Notes: generated from the sequence alone by a model not told the origin. 64,000 bases of DNA from Elusimicrobiales bacterium (GCA_041665305.1 JBAYJD010000008.1:9209-73208), one strand, 5' to 3'; positions 40,495 to 60,637 are shown, numbered from the stretch's first letter. Numbers and translations: made by a program.

Positions 40495-40647
40495 ATGCCG
40501 TCCCCCCGGCCCCGCCCGCGGTCCCTTTAGAATTCTATAAAATTAAAACAGGGAGAGCGACGAATGGCGCCGCCCCTATTTTTCAGAAGTGCTATAATCA
40601 AGTCCTTGCCTGGTTTCTTTGCGCGAGGCGGAAGGTCGCGGGAAAAT

Positions 40648-43191
40648 ATGCCGGTAGAAAAAACGGGTTATGACAAGCTTATCCTTGACGCGCTTAGCGA
40701 AGGCGTCTACGGCATGGATATGAACGGGAATGTCGTGTTCGTCAACAAAGCCGCGGAGCGGATCCTTGGTTACGACGCGGCCGGGCTTATAGGAAAGCAT
40801 TCCCATGAATGTTTTCATTACGCTAGGCCGGACGGTTCGAAATACGATCCCAAAGACTGCAATATCTACGCCACTTCCCATGACGGGAAAGTGCGCCGTA
40901 TAGACACGGAGGCGTTCTGGAAGAAGGACGGGACAGCCGTGCCGGTGGAATATGTCGCCACGCCCGTGACCGAAAACGGGACTATAACGGGCGTCGTAGT
41001 GTCGTTTAACGACCTGACCGCCAGGCTGCTTGCGGAAGAAAAGACCAGGGAATATCTCCAGACGAGCGCGATCACCAATCACATCCTGAAACTTTCGCTG
41101 GAGAATAAACCGCTGTCGGAGATCCTGCAGAACACGCTCGATGAAATACTCTCGGTCAAATGGCTGTCAATAGAGACCAAAGGGGCGATCTTTCTCGCCG
41201 ACGAAAAGACGCGCTGTCTAAAGATGGCGGCCAAGGCCGGCCTGGGCGAGTTTATTTTAAAGACCTGCGCCGAAGTGCCCGCTGGCCGCTGCCTTTGCGG
41301 CAAGGCTTTGTTAAGCGGCAAGCCCGTGTTTAAGGCCCATCTTGACGGCGAGCATGAAAACTCTTATCCTGGGATCCCCGATCACGGGCACTATATAATC
41401 CCGATCACGGCCGGCGGCAGGGTGTACGGCGTTCTTAACGTTTATACCGGGCACGGCCATGCCCGCTCCGCTTACGATATTAATTTCCTCTCCGGCATAG
41501 CCGACATCCTGGCCGGCGTGATCTACAGGAGAAAACTGAACGAGAGGCTCGCGCTGTTGAGGGACCTGCGGCTCAAGGCCCTTGAAGCGCGGGATATAAG
41601 CGCGGCGCTTAAACTGCTGACTGACAACATTTGTGAAATAACCGGCTGGGCGGCAGGCGAGGTGTGGCTGCCTGGCCTGGATAAGCTCCATCTGTCCCGG
41701 TCCTATTATTACGGTAAAAACGAGCGCAGGCTGGAAACCTTCGCCAGCCGGTCGAAAAATTTTACTTTTAAAAAGGGGGAAGGCCTTCCCGGCGCCGTCT
41801 GGCAGAAGCTTGAGCCGGTCTGGTTCAGGGAGATGCCCAAAAGCGGGAATTTGCCCAGGAAAAAGATGGCGATGACGGCCGGGCTCAGGTCCGGCGTCGG
41901 AATCCCCATAATCGCGAACGGGGAGTTCATCGCCGCTATAACCTTTTTATCCACCGAAGTGAAGATCGGGGACGAGGAGCTGGTGAATTTTCTCGGCGAG
42001 GCGGCGGGCCAGTTGGGCATGATCTTCCACCAGAACCTGCTGGCGGAACAGCTGGTGCAGACGCAGAAAATGGACACGGTGGGGAAACTTGCCGGCGGCA
42101 TCGCGCACGATTTTAATAATATCCTCGGCGCGATCCTCGGCTACACAGGATTTCTGATCAGGGACCTTAAGAACATGCCCAGCCAGCTTTCCGACGCGCT
42201 GGAAGTAAAAAAAGCCGCGGAAAGGGCCGCCGCGCTGACGAAACAGCTGCTTGCCTTCAGCCGCAAGAAGCCGGCCGTTCAGCGGATCATAGATCTGAAC
42301 GGCACGATCAAGGGCCTGGCCTTGATGCTGGGAAAGATCATAGGGGAGAACATTAAACTTGAGATCGTTCCGGAAGCAGGCGTGCCGCTTGTAAAGATCG
42401 ATCCGACCCACCTTGAGCAGATCGTGATCAACCTTGTGGTGAACGCCAGGGATGCCATTGCGGGCAGCGGAGTTATAACGATAAAAACCGGCCAAAAGCG
42501 GTTCGCGGAGGGTGCGGCTCCGGCCGGCCTGAAAGCGGGAACATACGCCATGCTCACCGTCTCCGACACCGGCTCCGGCATGAGCGAAGAAATTAAAAAA
42601 AAGATATTCGAACCGTTCTTCACCACCAAGCCGCCTGGAAAAGGGACCGGAATGGGGCTTGCGATCGTCTATGGGGTTATAAAGCAGAATAATGCGCAGA
42701 TAACCGTCGACAGCGTGCCGGACGAGGGCTCCACCTTCACGGTATATATCCCGGCGTCCTCCTGCGACGGCCAGGCGGACGCAGAGGCCGGACACCGGGC
42801 GGAAGACGCCCGCCTGCGCGGTTCCGAAACCATACTTATAGCGGAGGATGACGAAGCGTTCAGGCCCGTGCTTGTGCGGGTCCTGAAAGAGCACGGTTAC
42901 AATGCTCTTGCCGCCGCCGGCGCCGCCGGGGCGCTGGAGCTTGCGGAACAACACGCCGGAGAGATCCATCTGCTGCTGACGGACATACGGATGCCGGGCA
43001 AAAGCGGAGCCGAGTTAGCCGGCGAGATGCTGAAATTGCGCCCCGGCATCAAGCTTCTTTATATGACCGGCCACATCGACATTGATGTCGAGATCCAGGA
43101 AAAGCATCACATAACAGACGATGCGCTGTTTTACAAACCGATAGAATACCCGCGCCTGCTTGCCAGGATCCGTGAAGTGCTAAATAAATAG
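40648..43191 (+). CDS. hybrid PAS/GAF histidine kinase with C-terminal receiver domain
   Basis: H-box [39 protein letters not shown]. Receiver ILIAEDDE...[10 protein letters not shown]. Start uncertain (40564 or 40648). Confidence 0.85.
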
Positions 43192-43978: not shown

Positions 43979-44281
43979 GTCATTTCCTCCATCGAACCGC
44001 AGTCAGTCGTTTTACCGCGCAAATATTATATACCCACCAGAGTCCTGCGGCCAGGACTTTAGGCCTATTCTATGCAAGGAATTAGACCTAACAAAACGAT
44101 CCTGCGGCTGAAGAAGAAACTGAAAGCGGAGCGCTGCTTTTATCCCTTTATCGAGCCGCTTCCGGTCTTCACCGAGGTTTCGCCGGCGTTTGGTATCCTT
44201 GAAACGAAGATGTCGCCGTCCAAAATCTATCAGGCATTGCGGTAGCGCTTAAGACTTACTAGAATTCATAGCCTCCTAACT

Positions 44282-44300
44282 CTGCCATAAAAATTGCTCC
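44282..44300 (+). promoter_or_regulatory. variant -24/-12 element, copy 1 (upstream of the sigma-54-like gene)
   Basis: CTGCCATAAAAATTGCTCC, i.e. TGCCAT-N5-TTGCT with the same spacing as TGGCAC-N5-TTGCW. Lies 39 nt before the ATG at 44339. Confidence 0.6.
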
Positions 44301-44338
44301 ATTTTCGCATAACGGCTATAATATGCGAGGGTGAGGCT

Positions 44339-45397
44339 ATGAGCAAATTCCATAAATTCGGTTTCAACCATTCCGCAAGAACTAAAGCGGCGGCTATGGG
44401 CGCTATGAAGCTGGCGCAGATGTCCGAAATGTCGGAAGGCGAATTTGAAAGCTTTCTGAAGAAGATCGAAGATAACCGTTTTTTTAAATTGCTTAAAGCA
44501 TCCGGCGCCGTCAGCCTGGCGGAATTCCCGAATGCGCGTTATGCCGCAAAAAAATACGCCGGCTACGGGCTTAAACTGTCCTCCGGAGGTCTGCCGGAAC
44601 TAGCCGACGGCAAAGGCGATCTGGTCGGCCTGATACAGGGTATAGGCCAGGAAAAATTTGAAACCTGCTTCCTGAAAGACGCGGCCATGAGTGACGTAGA
44701 GCGGGCAGAGGAATGCGACATAACCGTCAAAGACGCCGCCCGCCTGCGTGATTTCGTCAACCGCGCGTTTATACAGGCTGAATTTGAAAGCGCGCCCGAA
44801 GCTCCTGTGTCGGAAGTGTTCAGTGTCGTGGCCGGCATAGAGCTTGAAAACGGCAAGCCTCTCCTGGCGTTCTTTCACCGGGAAATCTGGAAAGGCTGTT
44901 ATAAAGTGGACGGGGAAAAACTTTCAGAAGCGTTGAAAGGCCTCCCCGCCTCTGAACAAACCGCCGTGGAAAAGCTTGTAAGGCGTATGGAACTGGCGGA
45001 CAAGCGAAAATCCACGCTTTACCGCGCGCTGGAAATAGTTATGGAGCGGCAAACCGAGTACCTGATAACCGGAGAGCCTGTGCGCAGGGCGCCGTTGCCG
45101 CAGAAAGTTCTGGCAGCGGAACTTGAAGTCCATCCCAGCGTTCTTAACCGGCTTATCTCAAATAAATCCATACAGATGCCTTGGGGCACCGAAGCGCCTA
45201 TGTCGGTGCTGCTGCCCAGCTCTAAAGCCATAAATTTAGAGCGGCTATACGCCATAGCCGTTGAAAATCCTGGTATGAACGACACTGAGTTGCGCGCCGA
45301 GCTTAAAATCCGCCACGGCGTAGAATTATCCCGCCAGTCCATAGTGCAATACCGCAAAGATTTATCATTGTCCAGGAATACTTCCAGCACGCTGTAA
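44339..45397 (+). CDS. short divergent sigma-54 (RpoN)-like factor
   Basis: The C-terminal half aligns by eye with RpoN. Pre-HTH region KRKSTLYRALEIVMERQTEYL. HTH LPQKVLAAELEVHPSVLNRLISNKSIQMPWG (compare MHESTISRVT..KY..TP.G). RpoN-box-like SRQSIVQYRKDL (compare ARRTVAKYR). N-terminus MKLAQMSEMSEGEFESFLKKIEDN resembles region I. About 352 aa against the usual ~450-500. Confidence 0.65.
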   Translation: MSKFHKFGFNHSARTKAAAMGAMKLAQMSEMSEGEFESFLKKIEDNRFFKLLKASGAVSLAEFPNARYAAKKYAGYGLKLSSGGLPELADGKGDLVGLIQGIGQEKFETCFLKDAAMSDVERAEECDITVKDAARLRDFVNRAFIQAEFESAPEAPVSEVFSVVAGIELENGKPLLAFFHREIWKGCYKVDGEKLSEALKGLPASEQTAVEKLVRRMELADKRKSTLYRALEIVMERQTEYLITGEPVRRAPLPQKVLAAELEVHPSVLNRLISNKSIQMPWGTEAPMSVLLPSSKAINLERLYAIAVENPGMNDTELRAELKIRHGVELSRQSIVQYRKDLSLSRNTSSTL

Positions 45398-45412
45398 AAC
45401 CCACTGTTGGGT

Positions 45413-45445
45413 TTCAAAATGAAAGCATTTATCTCAAAATGAGAT
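45413..45445. promoter_or_regulatory. enhancer-like repeat pair upstream of the lanthipeptide operon
   Basis: TCAAAATGA at 45414 and 45434 (20-bp phasing), ~100 bp upstream of the -24/-12 element at 45532. Confidence 0.5.
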
Positions 45446-45531
45446 GATGTTTGCTTCTTTTCTACTCCCCTGCCTCCGCAGATTTCCTGATTTCCCCAAT
45501 AGAAACGCATAAAATCGTCCAGTACATCCAT

Positions 45532-45550
45532 CTGCCATGAAAATTGCTCC
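45532..45550 (+). promoter_or_regulatory. variant -24/-12 element, copy 2
   Basis: CTGCCATGAAAATTGCTCC. Lies 46 nt before the lanA1 ATG. Confidence 0.6.
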
Positions 45551-45595
45551 ATAGAAGGTGTAGGCGGTCAAAACAAGCTAAGGAGAACGAACCAA

Positions 45596-45688
45596 ATGAC
45601 TAAAGTACTTGAACTGCAGAAACTGGAAACCGGATCAGAGGGCGAGACCCGCTTGGGCAGTTGGATCAGCAACAGCTGCGGGCAATAG
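45596..45688 (+). CDS. class III lanthipeptide precursor (30 aa), absent from the ORF track
   Basis: MTKVLELQKLETGSEGETRLGSWISNSCGQ. RBS aaggag. Leader VLELQ motif. Core S-x-x-S-x-x-C. Confidence 0.8.
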   Translation: MTKVLELQKLETGSEGETRLGSWISNSCGQ

Positions 45689-45724
45689 TGAGTGTGCCGA
45701 TATTAAACAATAGGAGAAAATAAA

Positions 45725-45826
45725 ATGAACACGATACTTGAGTTGCAGAAACTGGAAGTAAAGTCGGAAAACGAGACTCGCGGGGGAAGCTGGATCAGCA
45801 ACTGCTGCGGCGGGCAGAACGAATGA
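45725..45826 (+). CDS. class III lanthipeptide precursor (33 aa), absent from the ORF track
   Basis: MNTILELQKLEVKSENETRGGSWISNCCGGQNE. RBS aggag. Leader ILELQ motif. Core SWISNCC. Confidence 0.8.
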   Translation: MNTILELQKLEVKSENETRGGSWISNCCGGQNE

Positions 45827-45838
45827 GCGGTAGGATAA

Positions 45839-45872
45839 CTCCGGAGGTGGGGAGATTCGGCCACCTCCGGAG
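45839..45872 (+). terminator. strong hairpin between precursor genes and lanKC (attenuator or mRNA stabiliser)
   Basis: Perfect 12-bp stem ctccggaggtgg / ccacctccggag with a 10-nt loop. No clear U-tract. Confidence 0.5.
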
Positions 45873-45889
45873 CGGATTGTTAAGTTCGG

Positions 45890-48556
45890 GTGGGTAATGA
45901 TATGAATAGCGCAAACAACTTGAATTACTACCTGTTCGCAGACAAACGGTTCTATGAGCCCATGGATTATTGCGTGGTAAATGAGGGCGATTATTTTGAT
46001 TTCGTCCGAAGCCAGGCTGATGCGGAATGGAAGTTTGTCAGAAGCGGTATCTGGATAAACTGTATATACCTTAAACATACGATGCCTCTTCAGGGCTGGA
46101 AAATACATTTGTCGGCGACTCATTCGGATTCTGAAGGCATTTTCAGCGCGGCGGCAGAGTTTCTTATGGCGAACAAGGTGACTTTTAAGTTCCTGTTAGA
46201 CAAAAAAACATTGGCGATAACCAATTCAAAAGGCTGGTCTCGCGGCGCTTCCGGGAAATTTATGACGGTGTATCCGACGGATCCGGAGCACTGCAAGTGG
46301 CTGCTGGAAAAACTGCATTCACTGACGGCGGATTTTTGCGGCCCGTATATCCTCTCTGATATGCGTTATAAAGACAGCAAAGTCCTGTACTACAGATATG
46401 GCGGATTCAGGCCGAATTTACGGCTTGATGTGAATGGGAAACGTATCCCGGTGCTGGTTTCCCCTGATGGAAAAGAGGAGGCCGATGTGCGGCCGCCGTA
46501 TTACCGTCTCCCCGGATGGGTGGATGAGATATTCCCGAAGAAGAATACAAATGAGTCTGGTGGCGGATTGAATAACGGGAGATATGCAGTTGAGAGATCT
46601 CTGCATTTCTCCAATACAGGCGGGATATATATCGCCTATGACAATATCGGGAAAAAAAGAGTTGTGCTGAAAGAGGCGCGTGCGCATGTCAACGCGTTCG
46701 CGGAAAATGTGGACGCCGCCAGAATGCTTAAGAGGGAGTATGATATCCTGAAAAAAGTCGGGAACTGCGGCATCGCGCCGGAGCCGGTTGAATTATTCAG
46801 GGAATGGGAGCACCTTTTCCTGGCGGAAGAATATCTGGAGGGTTATATCACGCTTCACGCTTTCGCCGCGCAGAACAGTATTCTGCTGGAGGCGCGCCCT
46901 ACCGAAGAGAAGGTTAAATCCTACCTGGAAAAATATATCGCAATTTTCAGAAAACTCGCGGGAATTATTGAGGCCCTTCATTCCCGGAATATCATATTCG
47001 GGGATTTTTCGGTCAATAATGTCCTGGTCAATCCCGCCACGCTGGATATAAAAATTATCGACCTGGAAGGGGCGCTTGTGGAGGGCGAGGAGGAAGCTTA
47101 TAAACTTTTTACACGCGGGTTTGCCGCCGTCGAGCAGGTCAAGGGGGCGGCGCCTACGCGGGAAAGCGATTATTACGCATTCGGCGCGATAATGCTGTAT
47201 ATGCTGACGCATATAAACGGGATTCTGGATTTAAAGCCTGATGCCGGAACTGAAGCATTGCAGATGGTGGGCCGGGATTTTGGCATACCTGTAAAGTTGA
47301 GAAGGATTATAAATACCCTCATGCACTCCGATCCCGCGAAGCGGCGGGGCCCGGGTGTTTTGCGCGATCAGAAGCAGGAAACTGCTTTAAGGAAGACATG
47401 CGCGGTCAGATTGTCCGCAGCTGCTCCCCGGTTGTCCAGGAAGTACATTACTGATACCGTGCGGTCGGCATGCAGCTTTATTGAATCGAGCGCGGACTAC
47501 GCCAGGAAAGACAGGCTCTTTCCCGCAGACCCGGAAATTTTTGAAACGAATCCGCTCAGTCTTGCGCATGGGGCCGTAGGGGTTCTTTATACATTATCAA
47601 AACTCGGACGCAAGCCTGCTCCCGAAATGCTGCAATGGGTGCGCCAGCATGAAATTTCCGGCAAAAATTGTCCGCCCGGCTTATATCCGGGAATGTCCGG
47701 CATAGCCTGGGGACTGCTTGAGCTTGGCGATAAGGCTGGCGCCGAGGCTGTGTTCGGTAAAACATTCAATTCCCCGCTTTTAGCTGTTTCTTCATCGCTG
47801 TATACCGGCCTGGCCGGTTGGGGGATGACCAATCTTAAGTTCTGGCTGGCCACCCGCAAGGAAATTTACCTGGACAATGCCAAAAAGGCGGGGGAAACAT
47901 TGCTTGATTCCGCGCGCAACGATTCTCACGGTGCGCACTGGCCTGATCAGGCCGGCAAAGTGCCTATCGGGCTGGCGCACGGAGCGGGAGGAATAGGTCT
48001 TTTCCTGCTGTATCTTTACGCGGCCACCGGCAATCAAAAATACCGGCAAAAAGCCGTGGAGGCATTGGATCACGACATCGCTTATGCCGATGCGTTCGGA
48101 AACGGTAATATGGCCTGGGCGAAGACAGCCGGAGAGAACGGGGCGCTTTACCCTTACTGGGAATACGGCAGCGCCGGTATCGGAATTGCCTGCCTGCGCT
48201 ATTTCAGCGTGTTAAAGGAACCTAAGTACATGAAACTTGTGGAAAAGATATATGAAAGCTGCGCGACAAAATATGCGATTTTCCCAGGAAGAAATATGGG
48301 CATGGCAGGTCTGGGCGAGTTTCTGCTTGACGCTTATGCCGTGACAAAAGACGTAAAATACCTCAATAGCGCGCACAGTGTCGCAAGCGGATTCAAACGT
48401 TTTGCGATACGAAGCCCAAAAGGCGTCGCGTTCCCCGGCGACGGTCTGGCACGGATAAGTTGTGATTACGCCGCCGGGATGAGCGGGATCATACTGTTCC
48501 TCGACCGGCTGGTGTCAGGCCGGCCTGCGGATTTTATGCTTGATGAATTGCTTTAA
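45890..48556 (+). CDS. class III lanthipeptide synthetase (LanKC: lyase-kinase-cyclase)
   Basis: Central kinase-like VVLKEARAH, FGDFSVNNVLVN, IIDLEGA. C-terminal LanC-like GxxG repeats (SLAHGAVG, GMSGIAWG, GLAGWG, GLAHGAGG). The Zn-ligand positions read WEYGSAG and GRNMGMAG rather than WCxG and CHG, as expected for class III. Start is GTG 45890 or ATG 45902. Confidence 0.85.
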   Translation: MGNDMNSANNLNYYLFADKRFYEPMDYCVVNEGDYFDFVRSQADAEWKFVRSGIWINCIYLKHTMPLQGWKIHLSATHSDSEGIFSAAAEFLMANKVTFKFLLDKKTLAITNSKGWSRGASGKFMTVYPTDPEHCKWLLEKLHSLTADFCGPYILSDMRYKDSKVLYYRYGGFRPNLRLDVNGKRIPVLVSPDGKEEADVRPPYYRLPGWVDEIFPKKNTNESGGGLNNGRYAVERSLHFSNTGGIYIAYDNIGKKRVVLKEARAHVNAFAENVDAARMLKREYDILKKVGNCGIAPEPVELFREWEHLFLAEEYLEGYITLHAFAAQNSILLEARPTEEKVKSYLEKYIAIFRKLAGIIEALHSRNIIFGDFSVNNVLVNPATLDIKIIDLEGALVEGEEEAYKLFTRGFAAVEQVKGAAPTRESDYYAFGAIMLYMLTHINGILDLKPDAGTEALQMVGRDFGIPVKLRRIINTLMHSDPAKRRGPGVLRDQKQETALRKTCAVRLSAAAPRLSRKYITDTVRSACSFIESSADYARKDRLFPADPEIFETNPLSLAHGAVGVLYTLSKLGRKPAPEMLQWVRQHEISGKNCPPGLYPGMSGIAWGLLELGDKAGAEAVFGKTFNSPLLAVSSSLYTGLAGWGMTNLKFWLATRKEIYLDNAKKAGETLLDSARNDSHGAHWPDQAGKVPIGLAHGAGGIGLFLLYLYAATGNQKYRQKAVEALDHDIAYADAFGNGNMAWAKTAGENGALYPYWEYGSAGIGIACLRYFSVLKEPKYMKLVEKIYESCATKYAIFPGRNMGMAGLGEFLLDAYAVTKDVKYLNSAHSVASGFKRFAIRSPKGVAFPGDGLARISCDYAAGMSGIILFLDRLVSGRPADFMLDELL

Positions 48557-48566
48557 GGAGAATCCA

Positions 48567-50117
48567 ATGTTTAAGAATATGCGGCTTATTGTTCGGCCTT
48601 ATACAACCTCGTTTACCCTCGCATTGGCGGGCGTGGTCGCTATGGATGCGGTCATGAGCCTGCTCAATCCGCTTTTATTGAAATACATATTTGATGAGGG
48701 AGTGATAAAAAAGGATTTCAGGCTGTTTATTGTGGTTACTGTCGGGTTTATGATCCTTGCGACCTTATTCCGGTTGTTCTCTTTATGGAACAACCTTTAC
48801 GTGCAGGATCTGAAAAACAGAATACTTAAACGGCTTATAGGAAGCATGCTGGAAAGCTACTATAAAATGCCGTATATACAGGTCATGAAGAATAAAACCG
48901 GCTATTATACCTCAAGGATTTATGACGAGCCGCTGAGCGCCTCATCCACGGCGATAGATCTCGCTTTCGCGGTATGCCCGGCCGCTGTTTCGTTTCTTGT
49001 GGCGTTTGGGGTTGTTGTTTTCTTGTCGATCAAAGCCACGTTTGCGCTGGTGCTTACGGTGCCGTTCCTTATAATGCTCGCAAATAAATACCATTCCGAG
49101 ATCAAGCAGCATTCCCGCGACGAAAAAGAGGGGGAGGGCGAGTTGCGCGGCGTTATAACCGGTTCTGCGGAATCATATCGTACCGTCAACCTGTTCGGCC
49201 TGCATTCCGCGGTGCTGTCAAAAATTAACGAGAAGTTCGAAAAGTACACGACAAGTCTTAATGCCCGTGTCAGAAACAGCGCAAAACATAACACTTATGG
49301 CGCTATTTTCATGTCCTACGGCGAAATGCTGGTTATAATCGTCTGCGGATACGCGATTTTGAAAGGGGAGATGAGTTTCGGGGGATTCATGGCTTTTATG
49401 AACGCATTCTGGCTTGCCGTCGGCAATATGAGAACGCTTGTGCAGAAAATACCTGAATTCTCACGGAACTCAATGGCGTTGCATCGGTTGGCGGAGTTCG
49501 GCATGCCAGCTTCAGAAGCGGCTGGTACCGGCGGTGGAACCGGGATCGGCGCAATTACACTTGAAAACGTGGGGTTCAGCTATGGTGATAAGCAAGTATT
49601 TTCAAACCTGAGTTTCAGCGCGGGCAAAGGCGAAAAATTGCTGCTAAGCGGCAAGAACGGCTCCGGAAAATCCACGGTGGCGAATATGCTCTCCGGATTC
49701 CTCGCGCCGGATAATGGGACCGCGCGGATTCTGGGCGTTGAAAAGACCAGCGCCTGCGTCTCCCCGCATCACTTCGCGCCTGGCACATTACGCGACAACC
49801 TGAAATTCGATAGCCATACGGACGAACAGCGCCGATACCTGAATGGCGTGCTGGCGGACTTCAAGCTGACGGAAAGTCTTGATAAGAGCCCTGATGCGCT
49901 GTCCGCCGGGCAGAAGAAAAAGGCCGAGATCGCTATGGGGTTGATGAAAGACGCTGAATTGTTTCTGTTCGACGAACCTCTCGCCAACGTGGACGTGGAG
50001 AGCAAGCCGATAATAATGGAGCATATCTTTAACCGGACCAAAGATAAAATCCTGGTAGTTGTAATGCATGGGGATGATGAATTCCGTGGGCAGTTTACCA
50101 GGATGGTGAGTTTATGA
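48567..50117 (+). CDS. ABC transporter, fused permease/ATPase (peptide exporter)
   Basis: Six N-terminal TM helices. Walker A GKNGSGKST, signature LSAGQKKK, Walker B LFLFDEP. RBS aaggag. Confidence 0.85.
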   Translation: MFKNMRLIVRPYTTSFTLALAGVVAMDAVMSLLNPLLLKYIFDEGVIKKDFRLFIVVTVGFMILATLFRLFSLWNNLYVQDLKNRILKRLIGSMLESYYKMPYIQVMKNKTGYYTSRIYDEPLSASSTAIDLAFAVCPAAVSFLVAFGVVVFLSIKATFALVLTVPFLIMLANKYHSEIKQHSRDEKEGEGELRGVITGSAESYRTVNLFGLHSAVLSKINEKFEKYTTSLNARVRNSAKHNTYGAIFMSYGEMLVIIVCGYAILKGEMSFGGFMAFMNAFWLAVGNMRTLVQKIPEFSRNSMALHRLAEFGMPASEAAGTGGGTGIGAITLENVGFSYGDKQVFSNLSFSAGKGEKLLLSGKNGSGKSTVANMLSGFLAPDNGTARILGVEKTSACVSPHHFAPGTLRDNLKFDSHTDEQRRYLNGVLADFKLTESLDKSPDALSAGQKKKAEIAMGLMKDAELFLFDEPLANVDVESKPIIMEHIFNRTKDKILVVVMHGDDEFRGQFTRMVSL

Positions 50118-50126
50118 TGCGGTTTT

Positions 50127-50205
50127 CTCATTTTGAGAAAAGAGATCCCATAAGTTTTCATTGATGGGGTTTGTCAAAATGAGAGTAAGTATCTTAAAAT
50201 GAAAC
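50127..50205. promoter_or_regulatory. enhancer-like repeat array upstream of the second precursor operon
   Basis: Palindrome TCTCATTTTGAGA (50127-50139), TTTCATTGA (50157), TCAAAATGA (50174), TTAAAATGA (50194). The last two are 20 bp apart. The array ends ~87 bp before the promoter. Confidence 0.55.
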
Positions 50206-50280
50206 ATTGTTGTCTGGCTTTTAAATCCTTTGCATCCCGGACTGTTGAATTTTCCCAATGAAGGCAATTAAATTTGATAA

Positions 50281-50299
50281 CTGCCATAAAAATTGCTCC
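50281..50299 (+). promoter_or_regulatory. variant -24/-12 element, copy 3
   Basis: CTGCCATAAAAATTGCTCC. Lies 43 nt before the ATG at 50342. Confidence 0.6.
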
Positions 50300-50341
50300 G
50301 TAGTGGGTGTAAGTGCAGAAAACCACTAAAGGAGAACTTAA

Positions 50342-50509
50342 ATGAACGCAATGCAGATGAACCTTAACAATACGGACGAAAATAACTTCACTTCCGGGTT
50401 CAACCGTGCGCCTGAGTTGGAGGATGTGTTTATGTCTGGTTTCAACCGCGCGCCAGAGCTGGAAGAGAGTTTTACTTCCGGTTTCAATCGCGCTCCCGAA
50501 CTGGCCTAA
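50342..50509 (+). CDS. repeat-containing RiPP precursor (55 aa), absent from the ORF track
   Basis: MNAMQMNLNNTDENNF-TSGFNRAPELEDVF-MSGFNRAPELEESF-TSGFNRAPELA. RBS aaaggag. Three 14-codon units with SGFNRAPEL invariant while 8 of its 9 codons differ synonymously between units. Confidence 0.8.
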   Translation: MNAMQMNLNNTDENNFTSGFNRAPELEDVFMSGFNRAPELEESFTSGFNRAPELA

Positions 50510-50521
50510 TCTGGTTATGAT

Positions 50522-50553
50522 CCGGGCCGGGGACAGTAAAGGTCCCGGCCCGG
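50522..50553 (+). terminator. GC-rich hairpin between precursor and radical SAM gene
   Basis: ccgggccgg(g)gac / gtcccggcccgg, a 12-bp stem with one bulge. No U-tract. Confidence 0.5.
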
Positions 50554-50566
50554 TTCCGGAGCTTAT

Positions 50567-51703
50567 ATGACAAAACCATTTTTCTCTTATTCCACTCCAC
50601 GAATAAACAGCCTTGTATTCAAGCTGGTGGACTATTGCAATCAAGGTTGCACTTATTGCTACCGTGAAAACGACAAAGAGCGTCCAGTGCGCATAATGTC
50701 AGATGAACTGATAGAAACTACTATCGTGAAATATATAGATTTTCTTAAGTCCAAAGGAAACGCCCGCAGCGTAGTATATCTGATCTGGCATGGCGGGGAG
50801 CCATTGCTGGCAGGAATCAGTAAGTTCAGGACGATAATGGAAATACAGGCGCAGCTTGCGGCCAGGTATGAGGTCGGTTTTGTGAATTCCGTGCAAACCA
50901 ATGGGGTCTATATTGATGAGGAATGGGCAAAGTTCTTCAACGAAAACAGGTTCCTGGTCGGGGTGAGCCTGGACGGCCCTAAGCAGATTCATGATATCTA
51001 CAGAAAAAACAAAGGCGGAGTTTCCACCTTCGCGGAGACGATGCGCGGGATCAAATTGCTGCAAGCGCACAAAATAAAAACTAATCTTATCGGTGTTGTA
51101 ACCAATGAGAGCGCTCCGCACGCCGATATGATGTATGAGTTTTTCAGGGATTTTGGCGTGCAGGACATAGACCTCATCCCTTGTTTTGATTATAACGATC
51201 CGCTTACCTTGTCGCCGGAGCTGTACCGCGCTTTTATGGTTACGATTTTTAAGCGGTGGCGTTCGGACGGATTTGCGCCGCTGAGAATAAGGTTCCTTTC
51301 CGATGTTTTGAAAAAGATCTCGGTGCTGCGTTCCGGCGGTTGCGCTACTATAGGCTGCGAGCTTATGGGCGGCTGCGGGCAGAACTGGTCCATAGGCGTG
51401 GAAGGGGAAGTATATCCGTGCGAGTGCCTCACCCCGATAAAGCGCATGGAGCTGGGAAATATTATGGAATCTTCTTTTGAAGGGCTCATGTCCTGCGGCG
51501 CTTTCACTAACGTGAAATCGGAGAACAATGATATCGCGCAAGATTGCCGCGACTGCGACGTGCTGGCGGTATGCCGGGCAGGCTGCCTCAACAGGCGTCT
51601 TAAGGATTATAAACTTGACGGGAAAAGGGACCCTTACTGCCTTGCCCGCCGTGACGTGATCAAACTTGCCCTGGAGGATGCGTATGCAATCCCGGCTAAA
51701 TAA
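50567..51703 (+). CDS. radical SAM/SPASM-domain peptide maturase
   Basis: CNQGCTYC (CxxxCxxC), WHGGEPLL. C-terminal Cys clusters GGCATIGCELMGGCGQ...YPCEC and CRDCDVLAVCRAGC typical of SPASM auxiliary clusters. Confidence 0.85.
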   Translation: MTKPFFSYSTPRINSLVFKLVDYCNQGCTYCYRENDKERPVRIMSDELIETTIVKYIDFLKSKGNARSVVYLIWHGGEPLLAGISKFRTIMEIQAQLAARYEVGFVNSVQTNGVYIDEEWAKFFNENRFLVGVSLDGPKQIHDIYRKNKGGVSTFAETMRGIKLLQAHKIKTNLIGVVTNESAPHADMMYEFFRDFGVQDIDLIPCFDYNDPLTLSPELYRAFMVTIFKRWRSDGFAPLRIRFLSDVLKKISVLRSGGCATIGCELMGGCGQNWSIGVEGEVYPCECLTPIKRMELGNIMESSFEGLMSCGAFTNVKSENNDIAQDCRDCDVLAVCRAGCLNRRLKDYKLDGKRDPYCLARRDVIKLALEDAYAIPAK

Positions 51704-52877
51704 AAACGCCTGGTTATTGTTGTCAGCCGTAGCCATTTCATCCGTAGGGGATTGGCTCAATATCCTTGCCCTGATTACTGTGTTTAGCAAGGCGTATGGG
51801 GCGGCAAGCGTGGCATTCCTGATGGCGATGCGGGCTGTTCCCGGCGTCCTGCTGGGGCCGTGGGTTGCCAATCACATAGATCGCTTTCAGAAAACACGCG
51901 TACTCATTTTTTTAAGCGTCGCTCAGGCAGCCCTGGCGTTAACATTGGGCGTTCTCTCTGACCGTTGGGCGCTTCTCGGCGCGGCGGCGGCGCTTTCCAC
52001 GCTTAATTTGTTCTCCGCCCCTTTGATCAAGGCTCTCCTCCCCACGGTATGCAACTCCGCATCGCTTAGCCGCGTGAATTCGTATTTCGCATCTATACAG
52101 TCAAGTTCCTATGTTCTGATACCGCTTCTTAGCGGGGTGCTGATATCAATCTTTGGCCCGGCGGCATGTTTTAATATAGATGCGGCGACATTTGTCGTCT
52201 TTGGCGTAATGATCGCAGCTGTGCATGTTTCTGATGCGGGGCGTGTCGGCGTTCAGGGGGGGGCGGTAGAGTCCGGGAGTCTCTTCAGGGATCTGCTAAA
52301 TACGCCTGATCTAAAGCGGACATTGTTTGCTTTTGCAGTGGCGGGATTTTCACTGGGGACGATCTACTCGGTGGAGATTTCTTTTTTCGCCAAATACCTG
52401 AATGTAGATCCTCGCGGTTACGGAAGCTTTGTGGCGATCGCCGGCGCGGGTGTGTTGATGGGATCCCTGCTCTGCGGGCGGTTTACGGCTTCGGCAACGC
52501 TTGAGCGGGTGTTTGTAGCGGGGCTTGCCTTATTCGGGACAATGACGGTGCTCTTTTCTTTTAACCGCAGTTTGGTTGTGGCGATCGGGTTGATTATGCT
52601 GTCAGGATTCGGAGAGGGCCTGTTTTCCGTTTCAGGCACCATCCTCGTCCAATTACAATCGCGCGCGGACCGGTTGGCCGGAAATTTTACACTGCTTGGC
52701 GTTTTGTCCAAGAGCTTCAGTCTTTTTGCGATGCTTGTAGCCGCAATGTTTATGGATTACATGCAGCCGGCAGGATTGTTGCTTGTGGCGGGGCTGGTTG
52801 CATTGGGTGTAGCTGCGGTATGGGGCGTAACAAAAGCTCAGGTCAGCAATGTTGCTGCGCCAAAATGCGCCGAATGA
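51684..52877 (+). CDS. MFS transporter (putative peptide exporter)
   Basis: 12 predicted TM helices. N-terminus LLLSAVAISSVGDWLNILAL typical of the MFS_3/EntS-like group. Overlaps the rSAM 3' end. RBS ggagg. Confidence 0.75.
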   Translation: MQSRLNKNAWLLLSAVAISSVGDWLNILALITVFSKAYGAASVAFLMAMRAVPGVLLGPWVANHIDRFQKTRVLIFLSVAQAALALTLGVLSDRWALLGAAAALSTLNLFSAPLIKALLPTVCNSASLSRVNSYFASIQSSSYVLIPLLSGVLISIFGPAACFNIDAATFVVFGVMIAAVHVSDAGRVGVQGGAVESGSLFRDLLNTPDLKRTLFAFAVAGFSLGTIYSVEISFFAKYLNVDPRGYGSFVAIAGAGVLMGSLLCGRFTASATLERVFVAGLALFGTMTVLFSFNRSLVVAIGLIMLSGFGEGLFSVSGTILVQLQSRADRLAGNFTLLGVLSKSFSLFAMLVAAMFMDYMQPAGLLLVAGLVALGVAAVWGVTKAQVSNVAAPKCAE

Positions 52878-52904
52878 ATGCGTTTTGGTGAAAAAGGGCT
52901 ATCG

Positions 52905-52983
52905 GCTCATTTTGAGATAGTAGTTTTGTCTAATCTTCATTGAAAGGATTTTCAAAATGAAAATGTTTATATCAGAATGATAG
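52905..52983. promoter_or_regulatory. enhancer-like repeat array upstream of the third precursor operon
   Basis: GCTCATTTTGAGA (52905), CTTCATTGA (52935), TCAAAATGA (52952), TCAGAATGA (52972). Same order and near-identical spacing as the array at 50127-50205. Confidence 0.55.
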
Positions 52984-53069
52984 GTTTTGTTTGTTCTTAA
53001 ATCCCTGAAAATATCGTCAGGCAGTCATTTCTCCAATGGGGGCGTATGAAATAGGTTGGTTGTCCGCCC

Positions 53070-53088
53070 CTGCCATAAAAATTGCTCC
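53070..53088 (+). promoter_or_regulatory. variant -24/-12 element, copy 4
   Basis: CTGCCATAAAAATTGCTCC. Lies 40 nt before the ATG at 53128. Confidence 0.6.
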
Positions 53089-53304: not shown

Positions 53305-53442
53305 GCAAAGACCCACGGTGGATATAGGTCCAAAGGCCCTTACAAACTTATGAGTCACAGACTACACTATTGTATGATTCTTGACAGCTCGGGGGATTGG
53401 CCTCGGAATATCTGCGACCGGACCTTGATCATGTGTATCCAG

Positions 53443-53487
53443 GGAAAGCAGAATCGAATTTGCTTTTCCTCTTTTAATTGAAAAGCA
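53443..53487 (+). promoter_or_regulatory. two mutually exclusive hairpins (terminator/antiterminator-like)
   Basis: Hairpin 1 is ggaaagca / tgcttttcc (53443-53469), followed by tctttt. Hairpin 2 is tgctttt / aaaagca (53461-53487). Both use the same tgctttt segment. Confidence 0.4.
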
Positions 53488-54636: not shown

Positions 54637-55332
54637 ATGAAATCAAACCCCCGTCTTGTTCAGAAGGAAAAAGGAAAAATAACCTATCAAATGCCGGATT
54701 TTACCCGGCTTAATACTTCGGCGATAGATAAGCTTGCCTGGCCGAAGGAAATCCCGGTCTTGTGGCTGAAATACTACGAAAACCTCGACGGCTGCTACGA
54801 GGCGTTGGATAAAAGGATATCCCGCAAATATATCGTGCGGGTAATATACTCCGCCGATAAGAAAGATATTCATTTGAAGGGGAGAAAGGAATCTGCCTGC
54901 GCGATAAAAGCCAGGGAATCGCTTACAACGGCGGAATTATTGGCACTATATCTTGAAACACATGCTAAATCCTTTATCGCGCCGTGGGCCGGACAACTTG
55001 ATAGTAAATATATAGACGAGGTTTCCTCGTTCATTAAAGAAGATCTGCCGATCTCAAAGTCGTTGAGCTTCTTTAAGGATAAATCCCCAGTGGGATTGGT
55101 GCTCCTGACGGAGTTAGGCAGCGGAGCTGGGCTTATTTCATGGATATGGTTCGCGCCGTCTTTAAGCATTGCTGAAAGACGGAAAGCGCACAATCTCTTT
55201 GCCGCCTGGCTGAGGAACGGGAAATATCCGCAAATTAAAAGTGTCGTTCATTCTTTCAACCTGCGCTCTAACAGATTCTTTATAAAAATGGGATTCCATA
55301 CTCAATGCATTGCTATCACCAGACGAAGCTGA
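54637..55332 (+). CDS. GNAT-family acetyltransferase-like protein (tentative)
   Basis: C-terminal pattern GLVLLTEL...ISWIWFAP...RRKAHNLFAAWL...NLRSNRFFIKMGF resembles GNAT motifs A/B. The N-terminal half is unassigned. Confidence 0.5.
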   Translation: MKSNPRLVQKEKGKITYQMPDFTRLNTSAIDKLAWPKEIPVLWLKYYENLDGCYEALDKRISRKYIVRVIYSADKKDIHLKGRKESACAIKARESLTTAELLALYLETHAKSFIAPWAGQLDSKYIDEVSSFIKEDLPISKSLSFFKDKSPVGLVLLTELGSGAGLISWIWFAPSLSIAERRKAHNLFAAWLRNGKYPQIKSVVHSFNLRSNRFFIKMGFHTQCIAITRRS

Positions 55333-56711
55333 TCTTTCTGCTTCTGGCCGCTTGCGGCGTTCTCTGCGGTTGCCGGAAGGCGGAACAGCGGACGGATACA
55401 TGGACAGTGTTGCTCAGTGACCTTCCCGTACGCCTGTTTGTCGCTGACGCCGGGCTTAATGGGACTTTTTACCTTTTAAAACAGACGCATGAGCCGCTTT
55501 TTAGGCAGGATGACGGGGAAATTTTTTCTTCTCGGCTTTTGGAGAAGTGGAGCAGGGATATCCGGTCTTCTGAATATCTTTTCTGTCCCGACACCTCTTT
55601 GCGTTTTGACGCAGATAACACTTTTTCAATGGCATTCTTTTATAAATATATACGGAAAACCGCTAAGGCGTTCGACCAGGGGGCGGAGGTTGAAAAACAT
55701 GGTGAATGCGTTAGGATAAAATTGGGAAGTCACTCGAATTTCCTGGCTTACCTGTCTCTTTTCGAAAACGCTCCTACTTTGAAAAGGACGGAAAAGATAG
55801 AGGTCGGACTCGGCGCTTTTTCCGTTGAAACATTGTCCGCCGAAAAGGTCGTGCTTAAAAGAAAGCAGAGAGTTTCCAATGGCTATAACGCGATAGTGTT
55901 CCACCAGTATAAGGGCGGCGGTGACCCAAATTTACAGAATAGGCAGATAAGTGATTTCAATAATATCCCATCATTCGAGATACCGGAATGGGTAAAGAAA
56001 GATTATCGGCATTTTGATAGTCCTATACTCCGGTCGATAAGCCTTATAATAAATTACCCCGATAAGGCGGTCCGGAAAGCGGTCTATAACTGTCTTAACT
56101 ATGATTCCCTTCGGCGCGCCTATGTGCCGCGGCGAAAAAACTTTTATGATATATGCAATATACTTCCCGTTGGGGTTCCCGGTGCCGAAGCCGGGCCTCC
56201 GAGGCAGGAATGCTATGGTATAGCGAGAATAAACCGTCATTTTGAATTGACATTCCTGAACCTTGCCTATAATAATGATAAAACGCTGAAGGAAGTGTTA
56301 TCGGCTTTTCATAAAAGAACGGGGATAAAGATCGTCGTCAGGACATATCCTGATAACCAGATCGATGCGGCGCTTCTTCAATCCCCACGCCGGTATAATC
56401 TGGCGATAGTGGTTATGGATGCTGTTCGTCCTAATCATGAAGCGTTCTTTGATTATTTAATCAAGAAAAACGGATACTTTGATACCGATAATCCCGCACT
56501 AACACACTTGTATGAAAAAATGTTGAAAGAACCGGATGAGGAAAAGAAAAATAGTTTAGCGAAAGTCATAGCAGAAAAGCTGGATTCCGAAGCGCTGGTT
56601 TTGCCTCTGTATCAGAATGTGGCGACTTTCTATTATCCGAGAAACATAAAAAGTATTATTCTCGGCAGAGGTTTTATCGAATATCCAGAGGTTGCGGAGT
56701 TCAGATGGTAA
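55305..56711 (+). CDS. lipoprotein, solute-binding protein family 5-like (peptide/oligomer binding)
   Basis: Lipobox-like LLAACGVLCGC. Size and LLKQTHEPLF / periplasmic-binding fold pattern. Overlaps the kinase gene start by 7 nt. Confidence 0.5.
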   Translation: MHCYHQTKLIFLLLAACGVLCGCRKAEQRTDTWTVLLSDLPVRLFVADAGLNGTFYLLKQTHEPLFRQDDGEIFSSRLLEKWSRDIRSSEYLFCPDTSLRFDADNTFSMAFFYKYIRKTAKAFDQGAEVEKHGECVRIKLGSHSNFLAYLSLFENAPTLKRTEKIEVGLGAFSVETLSAEKVVLKRKQRVSNGYNAIVFHQYKGGGDPNLQNRQISDFNNIPSFEIPEWVKKDYRHFDSPILRSISLIINYPDKAVRKAVYNCLNYDSLRRAYVPRRKNFYDICNILPVGVPGAEAGPPRQECYGIARINRHFELTFLNLAYNNDKTLKEVLSAFHKRTGIKIVVRTYPDNQIDAALLQSPRRYNLAIVVMDAVRPNHEAFFDYLIKKNGYFDTDNPALTHLYEKMLKEPDEEKKNSLAKVIAEKLDSEALVLPLYQNVATFYYPRNIKSIILGRGFIEYPEVAEFRW

Positions 56712-58864
56712 AAATTATAGGCCGGGCTTTTTCTTATAACTGGAAATACTACAGCGCGGCGGTGGCCGTGTTTGTGGTTTTCTGGCAGATGTTTTCCGTG
56801 TTCTCTGCCGTGCGCGTAGCTGATGATAATCTGCTAACCGCCATGCGGCAGAATGCGGCCTATTTTGAAAAAGCATTTCTTAAAGGTGATGTGTTTGAGA
56901 CTCAGCGCATAATGTGGCGCATAAAGAACGACAATATAAAGCACATAACATTCCACCCCACTGAGTTTAACGGCAGTAAGTGGATATTTAAAGAGGCCAT
57001 AATCGGGAATATTTACGACAGACCTCGCGCGCAGCTAACGTGCAATGTGCCTTTTATATCAAATGGCGCAGTGCTTGGCCAGCTGGAATATGTTATAGAT
57101 CTGGTGGATGTCAACGCTGTCGTCTTCGGTGAGAACTATATTTTATTTATAACCATAGTGGCTTTTTTTATGGGCCTTTTGTTTCTGTCCAATGTCGGGG
57201 CTATTAAAACTATTTTCAGCATAGAGCGCTGTGTTACAGAAACAAACGCTCTGGTCGATGCCGGTAAACACGCCGACATTCAGGATTCTATACAACGCAG
57301 CATCCAGTTGCTGCCGCAAAGTTTGCGCGATACACCATTCGCCGTGTTGATAAGCGGGTTGGCGGAAGTGCTGAAAAAAGCCTCCCGTCTTGAAAGTGAC
57401 CTTGCTGTTTCAAAAGCCACATCTGATATGGCGGTGCAAGTGGCGCATGACATTCGGTCGCCGCTGGCGGCGTTGGATACAGCGCTGAATAAAACTGATC
57501 AGCTCCCGGAACAACAGCGCATTATGGTGCGCCATGCGGTGAACCGGATACGCGATATCGCCAACAATCTCCTTGAAAAGAACCGGCAGCAGGCCAAAAC
57601 CTCTTCAGTGGCCATATCCCAGCCCACTGATGCCCGCGAAGCTCAGGAAACGCGCCTGCTTTCAAGCGCTATAGACCCGGTTATAACCGAGAAACGCCTG
57701 CAATTTGAATCAAAGCCGGGAATAAACATTGATTTTGAGCTGACAAAGGAATCTTACGGCTTGTTCGCTAAAATACAGCCGGTGGAATTCAGGCGCATAA
57801 TTTCAAATCTTGTGAATAATGCCGTTGAAGTGTTGGGCGATCAAGGCAAGGTCTCCGTAGGCTTGGGCCAGGATGCCGGGAATATTGTTTTAACTGTCGC
57901 CGATAACGGCAAAGGCATTCCGGCTGAAATACTGGCGAAACTCGGCCAGAGGGGAGAAACGCACGGGAAGGCTGGCGGATCGGGTCTGGGGCTTTTCCAT
58001 GCAAGAACAACAGTGGAAAGTTTGGGTGGCAGTCTTGCGATAGCTTCCGAAGTAGGCAAAGGCACGACGATTACAATAAAATTGCCCAGGGCGGAGGCTC
58101 CAAATAATTTTGTGCCTGTGCTTGAACTTGTTCCCGGCCGGCCCGTGGTAGTCTTGGATGATGACGCTACAATACACCAGATCTGGGATGGCCGGTTTGA
58201 GTCCGCCAGGGTTCAGGAGCGCAATATCGAAGTAATTCATTTCAGCGAGCCGGATAAACTGCGCGAATGGGTTAAAACCAACACGGCAAAGGCCGAAAAA
58301 GCGGTTTATCTGTTTGACTATGAGTTGATCGGTTATAAAGAAACGGGACTTAGCCTTGCCGAAGAGCTGGGGATATGCGGCACGACAATATCTGTGACCA
58401 GCCGTTACGACGAGAAACGCATAATTGATGAGTGCAAGCGTCTTAAAGTGCGGATGATCCCCAAGGGGCTGGCAAGCCTTGTGCCGATAGCCATCCAAAA
58501 GCCTGATGCAAAACCGGAAGCAGTGCCTCCCTCCGGCCAGGTAGACGCCGTTTTAGTTGATGATGATAAATTGGCCCGCATGAGTTGGGAAATGGTCGCC
58601 AAGGCAAAAGGCGTAAACCTGGTTGTCTTCGACAATCCGGGCGATTTCCTCGCCCGTATAGAGGAATTCCCCAAAGAGACGCCTGTTTATCTTGATTCCG
58701 AGCTGGACGACGACCAGGAAAACGGCGTTAAAGGCCAGAATATAGCCGTGGATCTGCACAACAAAGGCTATGCCGATATCACGCTTGAGACCGGCCACAT
58801 GCCGGAAGATTTCGCCCACTTGCCCTGGCTTAAAGTGATAGACAAAACTCCGCCCTGGAGTTAA
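56705..58864 (+). CDS. membrane sensor histidine kinase with two C-terminal receiver-like domains
   Basis: TM, ~130-aa periplasmic loop, TM. H-box VAHDIRSPLAAL. NLVNNAVEV, DNGKGIP, GGSGLGLFHA. Then VVVLDDD...LFDYEL and AVLVDDD...YLDSEL modules. Confidence 0.85.
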   Translation: MVKIIGRAFSYNWKYYSAAVAVFVVFWQMFSVFSAVRVADDNLLTAMRQNAAYFEKAFLKGDVFETQRIMWRIKNDNIKHITFHPTEFNGSKWIFKEAIIGNIYDRPRAQLTCNVPFISNGAVLGQLEYVIDLVDVNAVVFGENYILFITIVAFFMGLLFLSNVGAIKTIFSIERCVTETNALVDAGKHADIQDSIQRSIQLLPQSLRDTPFAVLISGLAEVLKKASRLESDLAVSKATSDMAVQVAHDIRSPLAALDTALNKTDQLPEQQRIMVRHAVNRIRDIANNLLEKNRQQAKTSSVAISQPTDAREAQETRLLSSAIDPVITEKRLQFESKPGINIDFELTKESYGLFAKIQPVEFRRIISNLVNNAVEVLGDQGKVSVGLGQDAGNIVLTVADNGKGIPAEILAKLGQRGETHGKAGGSGLGLFHARTTVESLGGSLAIASEVGKGTTITIKLPRAEAPNNFVPVLELVPGRPVVVLDDDATIHQIWDGRFESARVQERNIEVIHFSEPDKLREWVKTNTAKAEKAVYLFDYELIGYKETGLSLAEELGICGTTISVTSRYDEKRIIDECKRLKVRMIPKGLASLVPIAIQKPDAKPEAVPPSGQVDAVLVDDDKLARMSWEMVAKAKGVNLVVFDNPGDFLARIEEFPKETPVYLDSELDDDQENGVKGQNIAVDLHNKGYADITLETGHMPEDFAHLPWLKVIDKTPPWS

Positions 58865-60400: not shown

Positions 60401-60615
60401 TAAACCCCTCCAAAATGAGAGAAACCACTTTCAAAATGCAATATTTAACCCCAAAAATATTATACAGAACTTTGCCGTAAGGATACATCGTTATATTGTT
60501 ATTTATGTGCGCGGTCTGCGGGATCTTCCGGGAGTTAATGCGGGAGTTGAAAATGAGCTCGGGAGCAATTTCAAAACTGGTGGCTAAAGACAGGCTTCAA
60601 GCCCAAGCCCTGTTA

Positions 60616-60637
60616 GGAAGATAGGAAGCAGCGTCCC
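60616..60637. repeat. left arm of the perfect 22-bp inverted repeat flanking the protease gene
   Basis: ggaagataggaagcagcgtccc. The exact reverse complement is at 62030-62051. Confidence 0.9.

Follow-up and report, generated by a model that had tools for sequence, protein, structure and literature searches.

What acts on the short phased repeats that precede three peptide-antibiotic-like operons of an uncultured Elusimicrobiales bacterium? The repeats lie in a stretch of 64,000 nt (GCA_041665305.1 JBAYJD010000008.1:9209-73208; hereafter the window, meaning the whole stretch), upstream of the promoters of a lanthipeptide operon (P1), an operon for a precursor with FNRAPELE repeats (P2), and a 58-aa peptide operon (P3). 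A reading from the sequence alone had taken them for enhancer sites of the NtrC-type regulator encoded at 59039–60400, a bacterial enhancer-binding protein (bEBP). Dyad symmetry, 20-bp pairing, promoter distance, a complete bEBP, 17 related loci, and co-variation between the repeat spacer and the recognition helix all support this idea, and we consider it likely that the arrays are upstream activating sequences (enhancers) of this bEBP. To judge from its sequence, the system is a dedicated sigma-54-like control module that has departed from its relatives in how DNA is recognized.

Paired dyad repeats upstream of the precursor promoters

The exact core TCAAAATGA occurs seven times in the window, compared with 0.56 ± 0.69 times in shuffles (shuffle maximum 3), and six of the seven copies fall inside three arrays (45412–45444, 50126–50204, and 52905–52982). 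Four of these are on the + strand (45414, 45434, 50174, and 52952) and two on the - strand (50128, within the palindrome TCTCATTTTGAGA at 50126–50138, and 52907, within GCTCATTTTGAGA at 52905–52917). One-mismatch copies (TTAAAATGA at 50194 and TCAGAATGA at 52972) each start exactly 20 bp past the preceding site (50174 and 52952, respectively), as the sequence-only reading had described for T(T/C)A(A/G)AATGA. When one mismatch is allowed, YTCAAAATGAR is found 17 times against 6.1 expected. The core is the center of a 13-bp inverted repeat, TYTC-N5-GARA (e.g., TTTCAAAATGAAA and TCTCAAAATGAGA), with matching flanks (TTCA..TGAA or CTCA..TGAG), and the palindrome TCTCATTTTGAGA is the same site on the opposite strand. 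All four window copies of the strict 13-mer TYTC-W5-GARA fall within the arrays. The seventh exact copy, TCATTTTGA at 56237, lies inside a gene for an SBP_bac_5-like protein and matches the chance expectation. As a separate observation, this copy abuts (56237–56276) the best sigma-70-like match of the region (TTGACA-18-AATAAT, 11/12), about 430 bp upstream of the histidine kinase gene, and may mark an internal promoter or be due to chance.

A four-part array had been proposed before the second and third operons, and all of its motifs are present, with the palindrome and the TTCATTGA site of P2 starting one base earlier than stated (50126 and 50156). The P2 and P3 arrays differ by a 1-bp insertion or deletion between sites A/B' and the next site. 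The lanthipeptide operon has the last two sites (45414 and 45434), again 20 bp apart. The shorter-spaced site B' may be a weak or auxiliary site. Dyad symmetry and at least two sites on one DNA face, both expected of bEBP enhancers, are seen in the TYTC-N5-GARA repeats and in their spacing (20 bp in the window, 19–20 bp in relatives).

The promoter TGCCATrAAAATTGCTCC is present in four near-identical copies in the window (0.2 expected), three of which precede small precursor-peptide genes. Where canonical sigma-54 promoters carry GG at -25/-24, all four copies carry GC, and they retain the 10-base separation and the -12 TTGCT of the canonical TGGCAC-N5-TTGCW. The arrays end 90 (P1), 79 (P2), and 90 bp (P3) before the start of TGCCAT, which corrects the 87–98 bp given previously. 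In the proximal pair, the cores start 119/99 bp from the promoter in P1 and P3, and one helical turn (11 bp) closer in P2 (108/88 bp). Taken together, the cores at P1–P3 and at eight other promoters of the lineage start 88–164 bp before TGCCAT-N5-TTGCT, within the ~80–200 bp upstream of -24/-12 expected of an enhancer, and the site centers fall at about -110 to -145 relative to the inferred start sites. Another conserved block, ATTTCYCCAAT(g), lies ~45 bp before each of the three promoters and recurs in one distant lanthipeptide promoter (L005, about 2565); it may be the site of a bending protein or an auxiliary site. An integration host factor site was also considered and dropped, as by eye the repeats do not match WATCAA-N4-TTR.

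The regulator, the sigma-like factor, and their relatives

The bEBP has an NtrC-type architecture, with a receiver (Response_reg, residues 6–114, receiver Asp intact), an AAA+ domain (Sigma54_activat, residues 135–299, E 7e-57) in which GAFTGA is seen in the translation, and a C-terminal Fis-type helix-turn-helix (HTH). It is not NtrC itself (226 bits against a cut-off of 559 for the equivalog TIGR01818). Three related copies of the repeat had been reported upstream of its gene. Two of them, CCAAAATGA and TCAAAATGC, start 21 bp from each other (60410 and 60431) and are found again in the comparisons below; the third, TGAAAATGA at 60548, has no support from any comparison. A decayed promoter cassette was sought in 60440–60730 by local alignment against P0–P3 on both strands and was rejected, the scores being at noise level, which leaves the third copy without backing. 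An extended -10 element, found in nearly all aligned loci, lies at 60459–60469, which places the two supported sites in the bEBP leader and suggests autorepression; the bEBP probably represses its own synthesis from these sites.

The only sequence match of the short sigma-54-like factor is to the sigma-54 DNA-binding domain (Pfam Sigma54_DBD, E 7e-11, residues 218–345), and a profile search against the PDB returned sigma-54 matches only, confined to the C-terminal domain. In a fold comparison (Foldseek, AlphaFold2 model), the best 27 PDB matches are all sigma-54 chains, aligned over up to about 416 columns with template-modeling scores of 0.3–0.4, for a model of moderate confidence (pLDDT 66). 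By the sequence of its C-terminal domain and by its modeled fold, the protein is a sigma-54 relative. Given that the N-terminal 200 residues are unmatched and the model is of moderate confidence, we infer its dependence on a bEBP from the promoter type and gene linkage. Its RpoN box (window 45352–45384) reads LSRQSIVQYRK, compared with LSRRSxAQYRK in relatives. Because the promoter lacks GG and the factor scores below the threshold for full-length RpoN (NCBIfam rpoN, 42 bits against a cut-off of 277), the system is a variant of the sigma-54/bEBP kind.

When genomes were scanned with the sigma-like protein as query, 22 Elusimicrobia loci were recovered. These include close relatives (L001–L003, 88–92% identity) and 17 distant loci (L005–L022 except L021, 65–72% identity, 307 kb in total); searching metagenomes for the promoter string added two further loci (L033 and L057). 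For the sigma-like protein as well as for the bEBP, nearly all homologues belong to Elusimicrobia metagenome bins. In L001–L003, a unit of sigma-like gene, two sites, and TGCCAT promoter is retained before different precursor genes. Among the window, L001–L003, L033, and L057, all 11 target promoters of the TGCCAT type have sites at -119/-99 (±1) or -108/-88. In the metagenome scan, most hits to the promoter string arose by chance in unrelated organisms and served as a negative control: none of ~75 such matches in unrelated contigs has a site.

In all 17 distant loci, a bEBP 57–62% identical to that of the window is encoded divergently from the sigma-like gene, 160–290 bp apart, and the sites are present in the bEBP leader, as in the window. 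The intergenic alignment of these loci retains five blocks only: the two repeats, the bEBP -10, a TGGCAT-N5-TTGCT promoter (TTGGCATAAAAATTGCTCT), and TATAAT. On the bEBP side, the repeats TTCTCTTTTGAGAA and TTTTCAAATGAAAA are 20 bp apart and ATTATACAGAA (TGTATAAT on the bEBP strand) forms an extended -10, a layout matched upstream of the bEBP in the window (CTCCAAAATGAGA at 60408, TTTCAAAATGCAA at 60429, and ATTATACAGAA at 60459). Across the 307 kb, 28 of 34 TCAWWTGA sites lie 60–130 bp upstream of TGGCAT-N5-TTGCT promoters, against 0.25 expected under uniform placement; because the loci are akin, this expectation overstates their independence, and the effect is still very large. Conversely, 24 of 32 such promoters have at least one site. 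The site pairs are spaced 19–20 bp, often about 116/96 bp upstream of the promoter. At other places in the distant loci, lanthipeptide-like and Cys-rich precursors as well as a ~190-aa secreted protein follow TGGCAT-N5-TTGCT promoters, and most of the promoters with sites drive small precursor peptides.

Several further features of the relatives were observed. A ~60-nt leader with a GC hairpin (GCGGGCCG...CGGCCCGC), absent from the window, follows many of the TGGCAT promoters, usually before the ~190-aa secreted protein (L005 8144, L007 743, L008 5623, L009 7529, L011 5244, L012 7617, L014 7586, and L022 8176), and may be a leader or a small RNA. The sigma-like and bEBP genes can occur as several paralogues per contig or metagenome-assembled genome (MAG; L003 at 606–1661 and 10001–11056, L004, L008, and L020), and L003 contains two tandem units of sigma gene, enhancer, promoter, and precursor. 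In L004, from the same MAG as L001, a GG-type promoter follows CCATTTTGA / CAAAATGG-type repeats, possibly a third specificity.

Site, regulator, promoter, and sigma factor differ together between lineages. TYTC-W5-GARA has its four strict window sites, more in L001–L003, L033, and L057, and none in the 307 kb of distant relatives, where TYTC-W4-GARA occurs 33 times (once in the window, apparently by chance). The recognition helix of the bEBP is KISTNLLYARLKK (STN..AR) in the window and in its three closest homologues, P0121–P0123 (78–92% identity), and mostly KISTRLLYSTLKK (STR..ST) in the remaining bEBPs. The joint change of spacer and recognition helix links the sites to this bEBP family. 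In parallel, the -24 element is TGCCAT (GC) in the window lineage and TGGCAT (GG, canonical) in relatives, and the second Arg of the RpoN box is replaced by Gln (window and P0001–P0004) solely in the lineage whose -24 dinucleotide is GC rather than GG. An RQ/GC unit (L001) and an RR/GG unit (L004) occur together in one MAG, CAZYFL01, so that modules of both kinds may coexist in one cell, unless the binning is in error.

These co-variations could be explained by a natural orthogonal sigma-54 circuit, which we propose only tentatively. After duplication, the RpoN box (RR to RQ), the -24 element (GG to GC), the helix (STR to STN), and the half-site spacing (N4 to N5) would have shifted jointly, so that the module would run beside one of the ancestral type without cross-talk, and the ~200-bp cassette would then have been copied before newly acquired precursor genes for peptides that are made on the ribosome and then modified post-translationally (RiPPs).

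In the proposed mechanism, a dimer of the response-regulator bEBP would bind each repeat through its C-terminal Fis-type HTH, and the kinase encoded at 56705–58864 would phosphorylate it. Phosphorylated units on sites two helical turns apart would assemble the active AAA+ ring, which would loop over about 90 bp of DNA and, with its GAFTGA loops, open a closed complex of RNA polymerase and the short sigma-54-like factor at TGCCAT-N5-TTGCTCC. The lanthipeptide, radical-SAM peptide, and third peptide operons would thus be turned on jointly, and the bEBP would probably repress its own gene from the two sites between its extended -10 and start codon. More speculatively, peptide sensing by the SBP-like protein and the kinase could render the circuit autoinducing.

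Other readings and points of tension

Another regulator (either an unrelated repressor or a further bEBP paralogue whose gene lies outside the window) could bind the repeats while the 59039–60400 product acts elsewhere, which we judge unlikely. Two bEBP paralogues do share one locus in L008 and L020, several MAGs have at least two sigma-like paralogues (L001 and L004, L014 and L016, two in L003), and the bEBP gene of the window lies 14 kb from the sigma-like gene rather than adjoining it. However, N5-type sites occur in the leaders of the window bEBP and of its 92% orthologue (L024), the sole DNA-binding gene constantly beside the sites across the 17 loci belongs to this bEBP family, and no other regulator genes were seen within the 44–61 kb cluster. 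The change in the recognition helix also tracks the change in the spacer, which argues against another regulator.

A role of the inverted repeats in RNA, forming hairpins that terminate or attenuate the upstream operons (sigma-like gene, ABC transporter, and MFS transporter), is very improbable. Each array begins at most 40 bp after the stop codon of the gene before it, the regions of P1 and P2 fold better than shuffles (z -3.1 and -2.7), and the P1 proximal site is part of a longer AU-rich hairpin followed by CTTCTTTTCT. Nevertheless, the P3 array shows no folding advantage over shuffles (z -0.75), and separate GC-rich terminators precede the site pairs in relatives. The same repeats also precede the bEBP gene, where the transcriptional context is the opposite one, and neither a constant 20-bp spacing nor a constant promoter distance would have meaning for a terminator. 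Termination as the main function was rejected, as a pattern scan called no terminator at the arrays and folding gave only AU-rich hairpins. An Rfam scan of the whole window found no match at gathering thresholds; hence, the arrays are not a known RNA element.

We give hardly any credence to the idea that the similarity only reflects recent duplication of a ~200-bp promoter cassette whose repeats have no function of their own: P1–P3 and the cassettes of L001–L003, L033, and L057 are alike over their full length (mean column identity of 70% among P1–P3) and precede unrelated precursor genes, but the invariant columns of P1–P3 concentrate in the repeats, one middle block, and the promoter, and distant lineages with unalignable flanks keep the architecture with the N4 version of the repeat.

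Several observations weigh against enhancer sites for this bEBP. In the window lineage, the sigma-like gene's own promoter has no array: none was found at 44083–44282, in agreement with the sequence-only reading, or in L092. At this promoter, the -12 element TTGCTC doubles as a -35 element and is followed after 17 bp by TATAAT (44294–44322), which is kept in most relatives, and the combination is likely a sigma-70 promoter for basal expression of the sigma-like gene. The near relatives (L001–L003, L033, and L057) conserve the whole ~200-bp cassette, which demonstrates its reuse and gives little footprinting power on which bases matter. Site-to-promoter distances in the distant loci (66–117 bp) fall into at least two helical phases, such that strict phasing with the promoter is not general, and it was discarded as a rule for all relatives. 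The HTH_8 match of the bEBP is 18.7 bits against the Pfam threshold of 22, with the typical motif visible, and its 82% homologue in L023 has no sites and no such promoters within the 16 kb of its contig. Further bEBP paralogues may exist elsewhere in the genome. Lastly, the sigma-like protein has no match to Pfam Sigma54_AID or Sigma54_CBD, and by sequence its N-terminal 200 residues match neither region I nor the core-binding domain of sigma-54.

The gene cluster, known systems, and meaning

Enhancer sites for the 59039–60400 bEBP would connect three operons of different content (Table 1). Downstream of P1 are two precursors of ~30 aa, a class III lanthionine synthetase (LanKC, 747 bits), and an ABC exporter. 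P2 precedes a 55-aa precursor with three tandem SGFNRAPELE repeats (window 50342–50509), an adjoining radical SAM/SPASM maturase, and an MFS transporter; the best matches of the maturase, all below cut-off, are the anaerobic sulfatase maturase, DynA, and cyclophane-forming maturases. P3 is followed by the 58-aa peptide gene, a 66-aa open reading frame (ORF), a second radical SAM enzyme, an unknown protein, the SBP_bac_5-like protein, and the histidine kinase, which is likely the partner of the bEBP. A purine-riboswitch-like aptamer (window 53376–53447, + strand), then a hairpin and T-run (53441–53480), lies between the 58-aa gene and the operon that begins with the 66-aa ORF, and P3 probably also drives this radical SAM-SBP-kinase operon through the riboswitch-like leader. 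The window copy of the aptamer is diverged (32 bits, several broken pairs), and its counterpart in L016 is a clear 2'-dG-II riboswitch (2209–2279; RF03165, 85 bits against a gathering score of 60). By eye, the element is also present in L013 and L015, directly after the sigma-like gene.

Table 1 Positions of the array sites, promoters, and regulatory genes in the window, counted from its first nucleotide
Feature	Position	Strand	Remarks
Fourth promoter copy	44283–44300	+	Before the sigma-54-like gene; array absent upstream; missing from the sequence-only reading
Short sigma-54-like factor	44339–45397	+	352 aa
P1 distal site TTTCAAAATGAAA (TYTC-N5-GARA)	45412–45424		Core start 119 bp before TGCCAT promoter
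P1 proximal site TCTCAAAATGAGA	45432–45444		20 bp past distal site; core start 99 bp before promoter
Conserved block ATTTCCCCAAT	45490–45500, also 50249–50259 and 53027–53037	+	ATTTCYCCAAT(g)
P1 -24/-12 promoter TGCCATGAAAATTGCTCC	45533–45550	+	Two lanthipeptide precursors, LanKC, ABC transporter
P2 site A, perfect palindrome TCTCATTTTGAGA	50126–50138		Core start 154 bp before promoter
P2 site B' TTTCATTGA	50156–50164		Shorter spacer; kept in P3, L002, L033, L057
P2 site C TGTCAAAATGAGA	50172–50184		Core start 108 bp before promoter
P2 site D TCTTAAAATGAAA	50192–50204		20 bp past C; core start 88 bp before promoter
P2 -24/-12 promoter TGCCATAAAAATTGCTCC	50282–50299	+	FNRAPELE-repeat precursor, radical SAM/SPASM maturase, MFS transporter
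P3 site A GCTCATTTTGAGA	52905–52917		Core start 164 bp before promoter
P3 site B' CTTCATTGA	52935–52943		
P3 site C TTTCAAAATGAAA	52950–52962		Core start 119 bp before promoter
P3 site D TATCAGAATGATA	52970–52982		20 bp past C; core start 99 bp before promoter
P3 -24/-12 promoter TGCCATAAAAATTGCTCC	53071–53088	+	58-aa secreted-peptide gene
SBP_bac_5-like gene	55305–56711		Precedes histidine kinase
Histidine kinase	56705–58864	+	
NtrC-type bEBP	59039–60400	-	Receiver, AAA+ (GAFTGA), C-terminal Fis-type HTH; recognition helix KISTNLLYARLKK
bEBP-proximal site 1 CTCCAAAATGAGA	60408–60420		8–20 bp upstream of bEBP start codon
bEBP-proximal site 2 TTTCAAAATGCAA	60429–60441		21 bp from site 1
Extended -10 of bEBP gene, ATTATACAGAA (TTCTGTATAAT on bEBP strand)	60459–60469	-	In nearly all aligned loci

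Outside the cluster, just upstream of it, lie divergent genes for two large PAS/GAF histidine kinases, one of which is a hybrid that includes a receiver (window 38227–43191). A long run of same-strand ORFs at 12000–28000 has a G+C content of 0.42–0.50, compared with 0.55–0.63 in the flanks, and a positive GC skew, and may be an acquired gene cluster.

The best-known paired enhancer of this kind is that of NtrC (NRI) at glnAp2 of enteric bacteria, in which two dyad sites lie on the same DNA face ~110–140 bp upstream of -24/-12. The NtrC system has extra weaker sites as well, and bEBP sites there overlap a sigma-70 promoter or leader, allowing negative control. By analogy, the window arrays would share the paired dyad sites for a response-regulator bEBP, a similar promoter distance, the extra weaker sites, and the overlap with a leader or promoter. 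They differ in the site itself (TYTC-N5-GARA instead of TGCACC-N5-GGTGCA), in site spacing (20 bp instead of 32 bp), in targets (peptide precursors instead of nitrogen-assimilation genes), and in the partner sigma factor, here a 352-aa divergent sigma-54 with a -24 element that reads GC. A dedicated histidine kinase and bEBP governing many small secreted-protein genes would also recall PrsK/PrsR of the PEP-CTERM/exosortase system. The window proteins fall below the cut-offs of TIGR02915 and TIGR02916 (212 against 503 bits and 70 against 300 bits, respectively), no PEP-CTERM or exosortase genes are present here, and the targets are RiPP precursors.

Cereibacter (Rhodobacter) sphaeroides has several sigma-54 paralogues, each with its own activators and gene sets (cited in PMC12316311; see also PMC11999139). 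CAZYFL01, with its RQ/GC-type (L001) and RR/GG-type (L004) sigma-like genes, appears comparable. The window differs in its GC at -24 and in a short factor that is linked to RiPP clusters. To our knowledge, the R. sphaeroides paralogues keep GG at -24.

Elusimicrobium minutum, the only examined cultured member of the phylum, was reported to be without sigma-54 (PMC3162934). Beyond this reported absence, a literature search on sigma-54 with lanthipeptides, RiPPs, or Elusimicrobia returned no prior description. As elements, bEBP enhancer sites are commonplace, whereas the literature searched has no description of a sigma-54 relative of 350 aa that has a bEBP and a kinase of its own and is devoted to RiPP precursors.

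The switch in the -24 element and RpoN box mirrors engineered orthogonal sigma-54 variants (R456H/Y/L) with rewired -24 elements (Nucleic Acids Res 2025, PMC12096077). In both cases, a substitution affects the second Arg of the RpoN box (which in E. coli reads ARRTVAKYR), and the cognate -24 element is altered as well. The present case is natural, involves a Gln substitution and a GG-to-GC change, and extends to a diverged bEBP and its sites, with orthogonality read only from co-variation. If true, a natural orthogonal circuit would show that such insulation evolves and would supply ready-made parts. The enhancer-promoter cassette flags precursor genes in Elusimicrobia metagenomes that are otherwise too short for calling, and the kinase, bEBP, sigma factor, and promoter would together form a defined switch for expressing silent clusters in another host.

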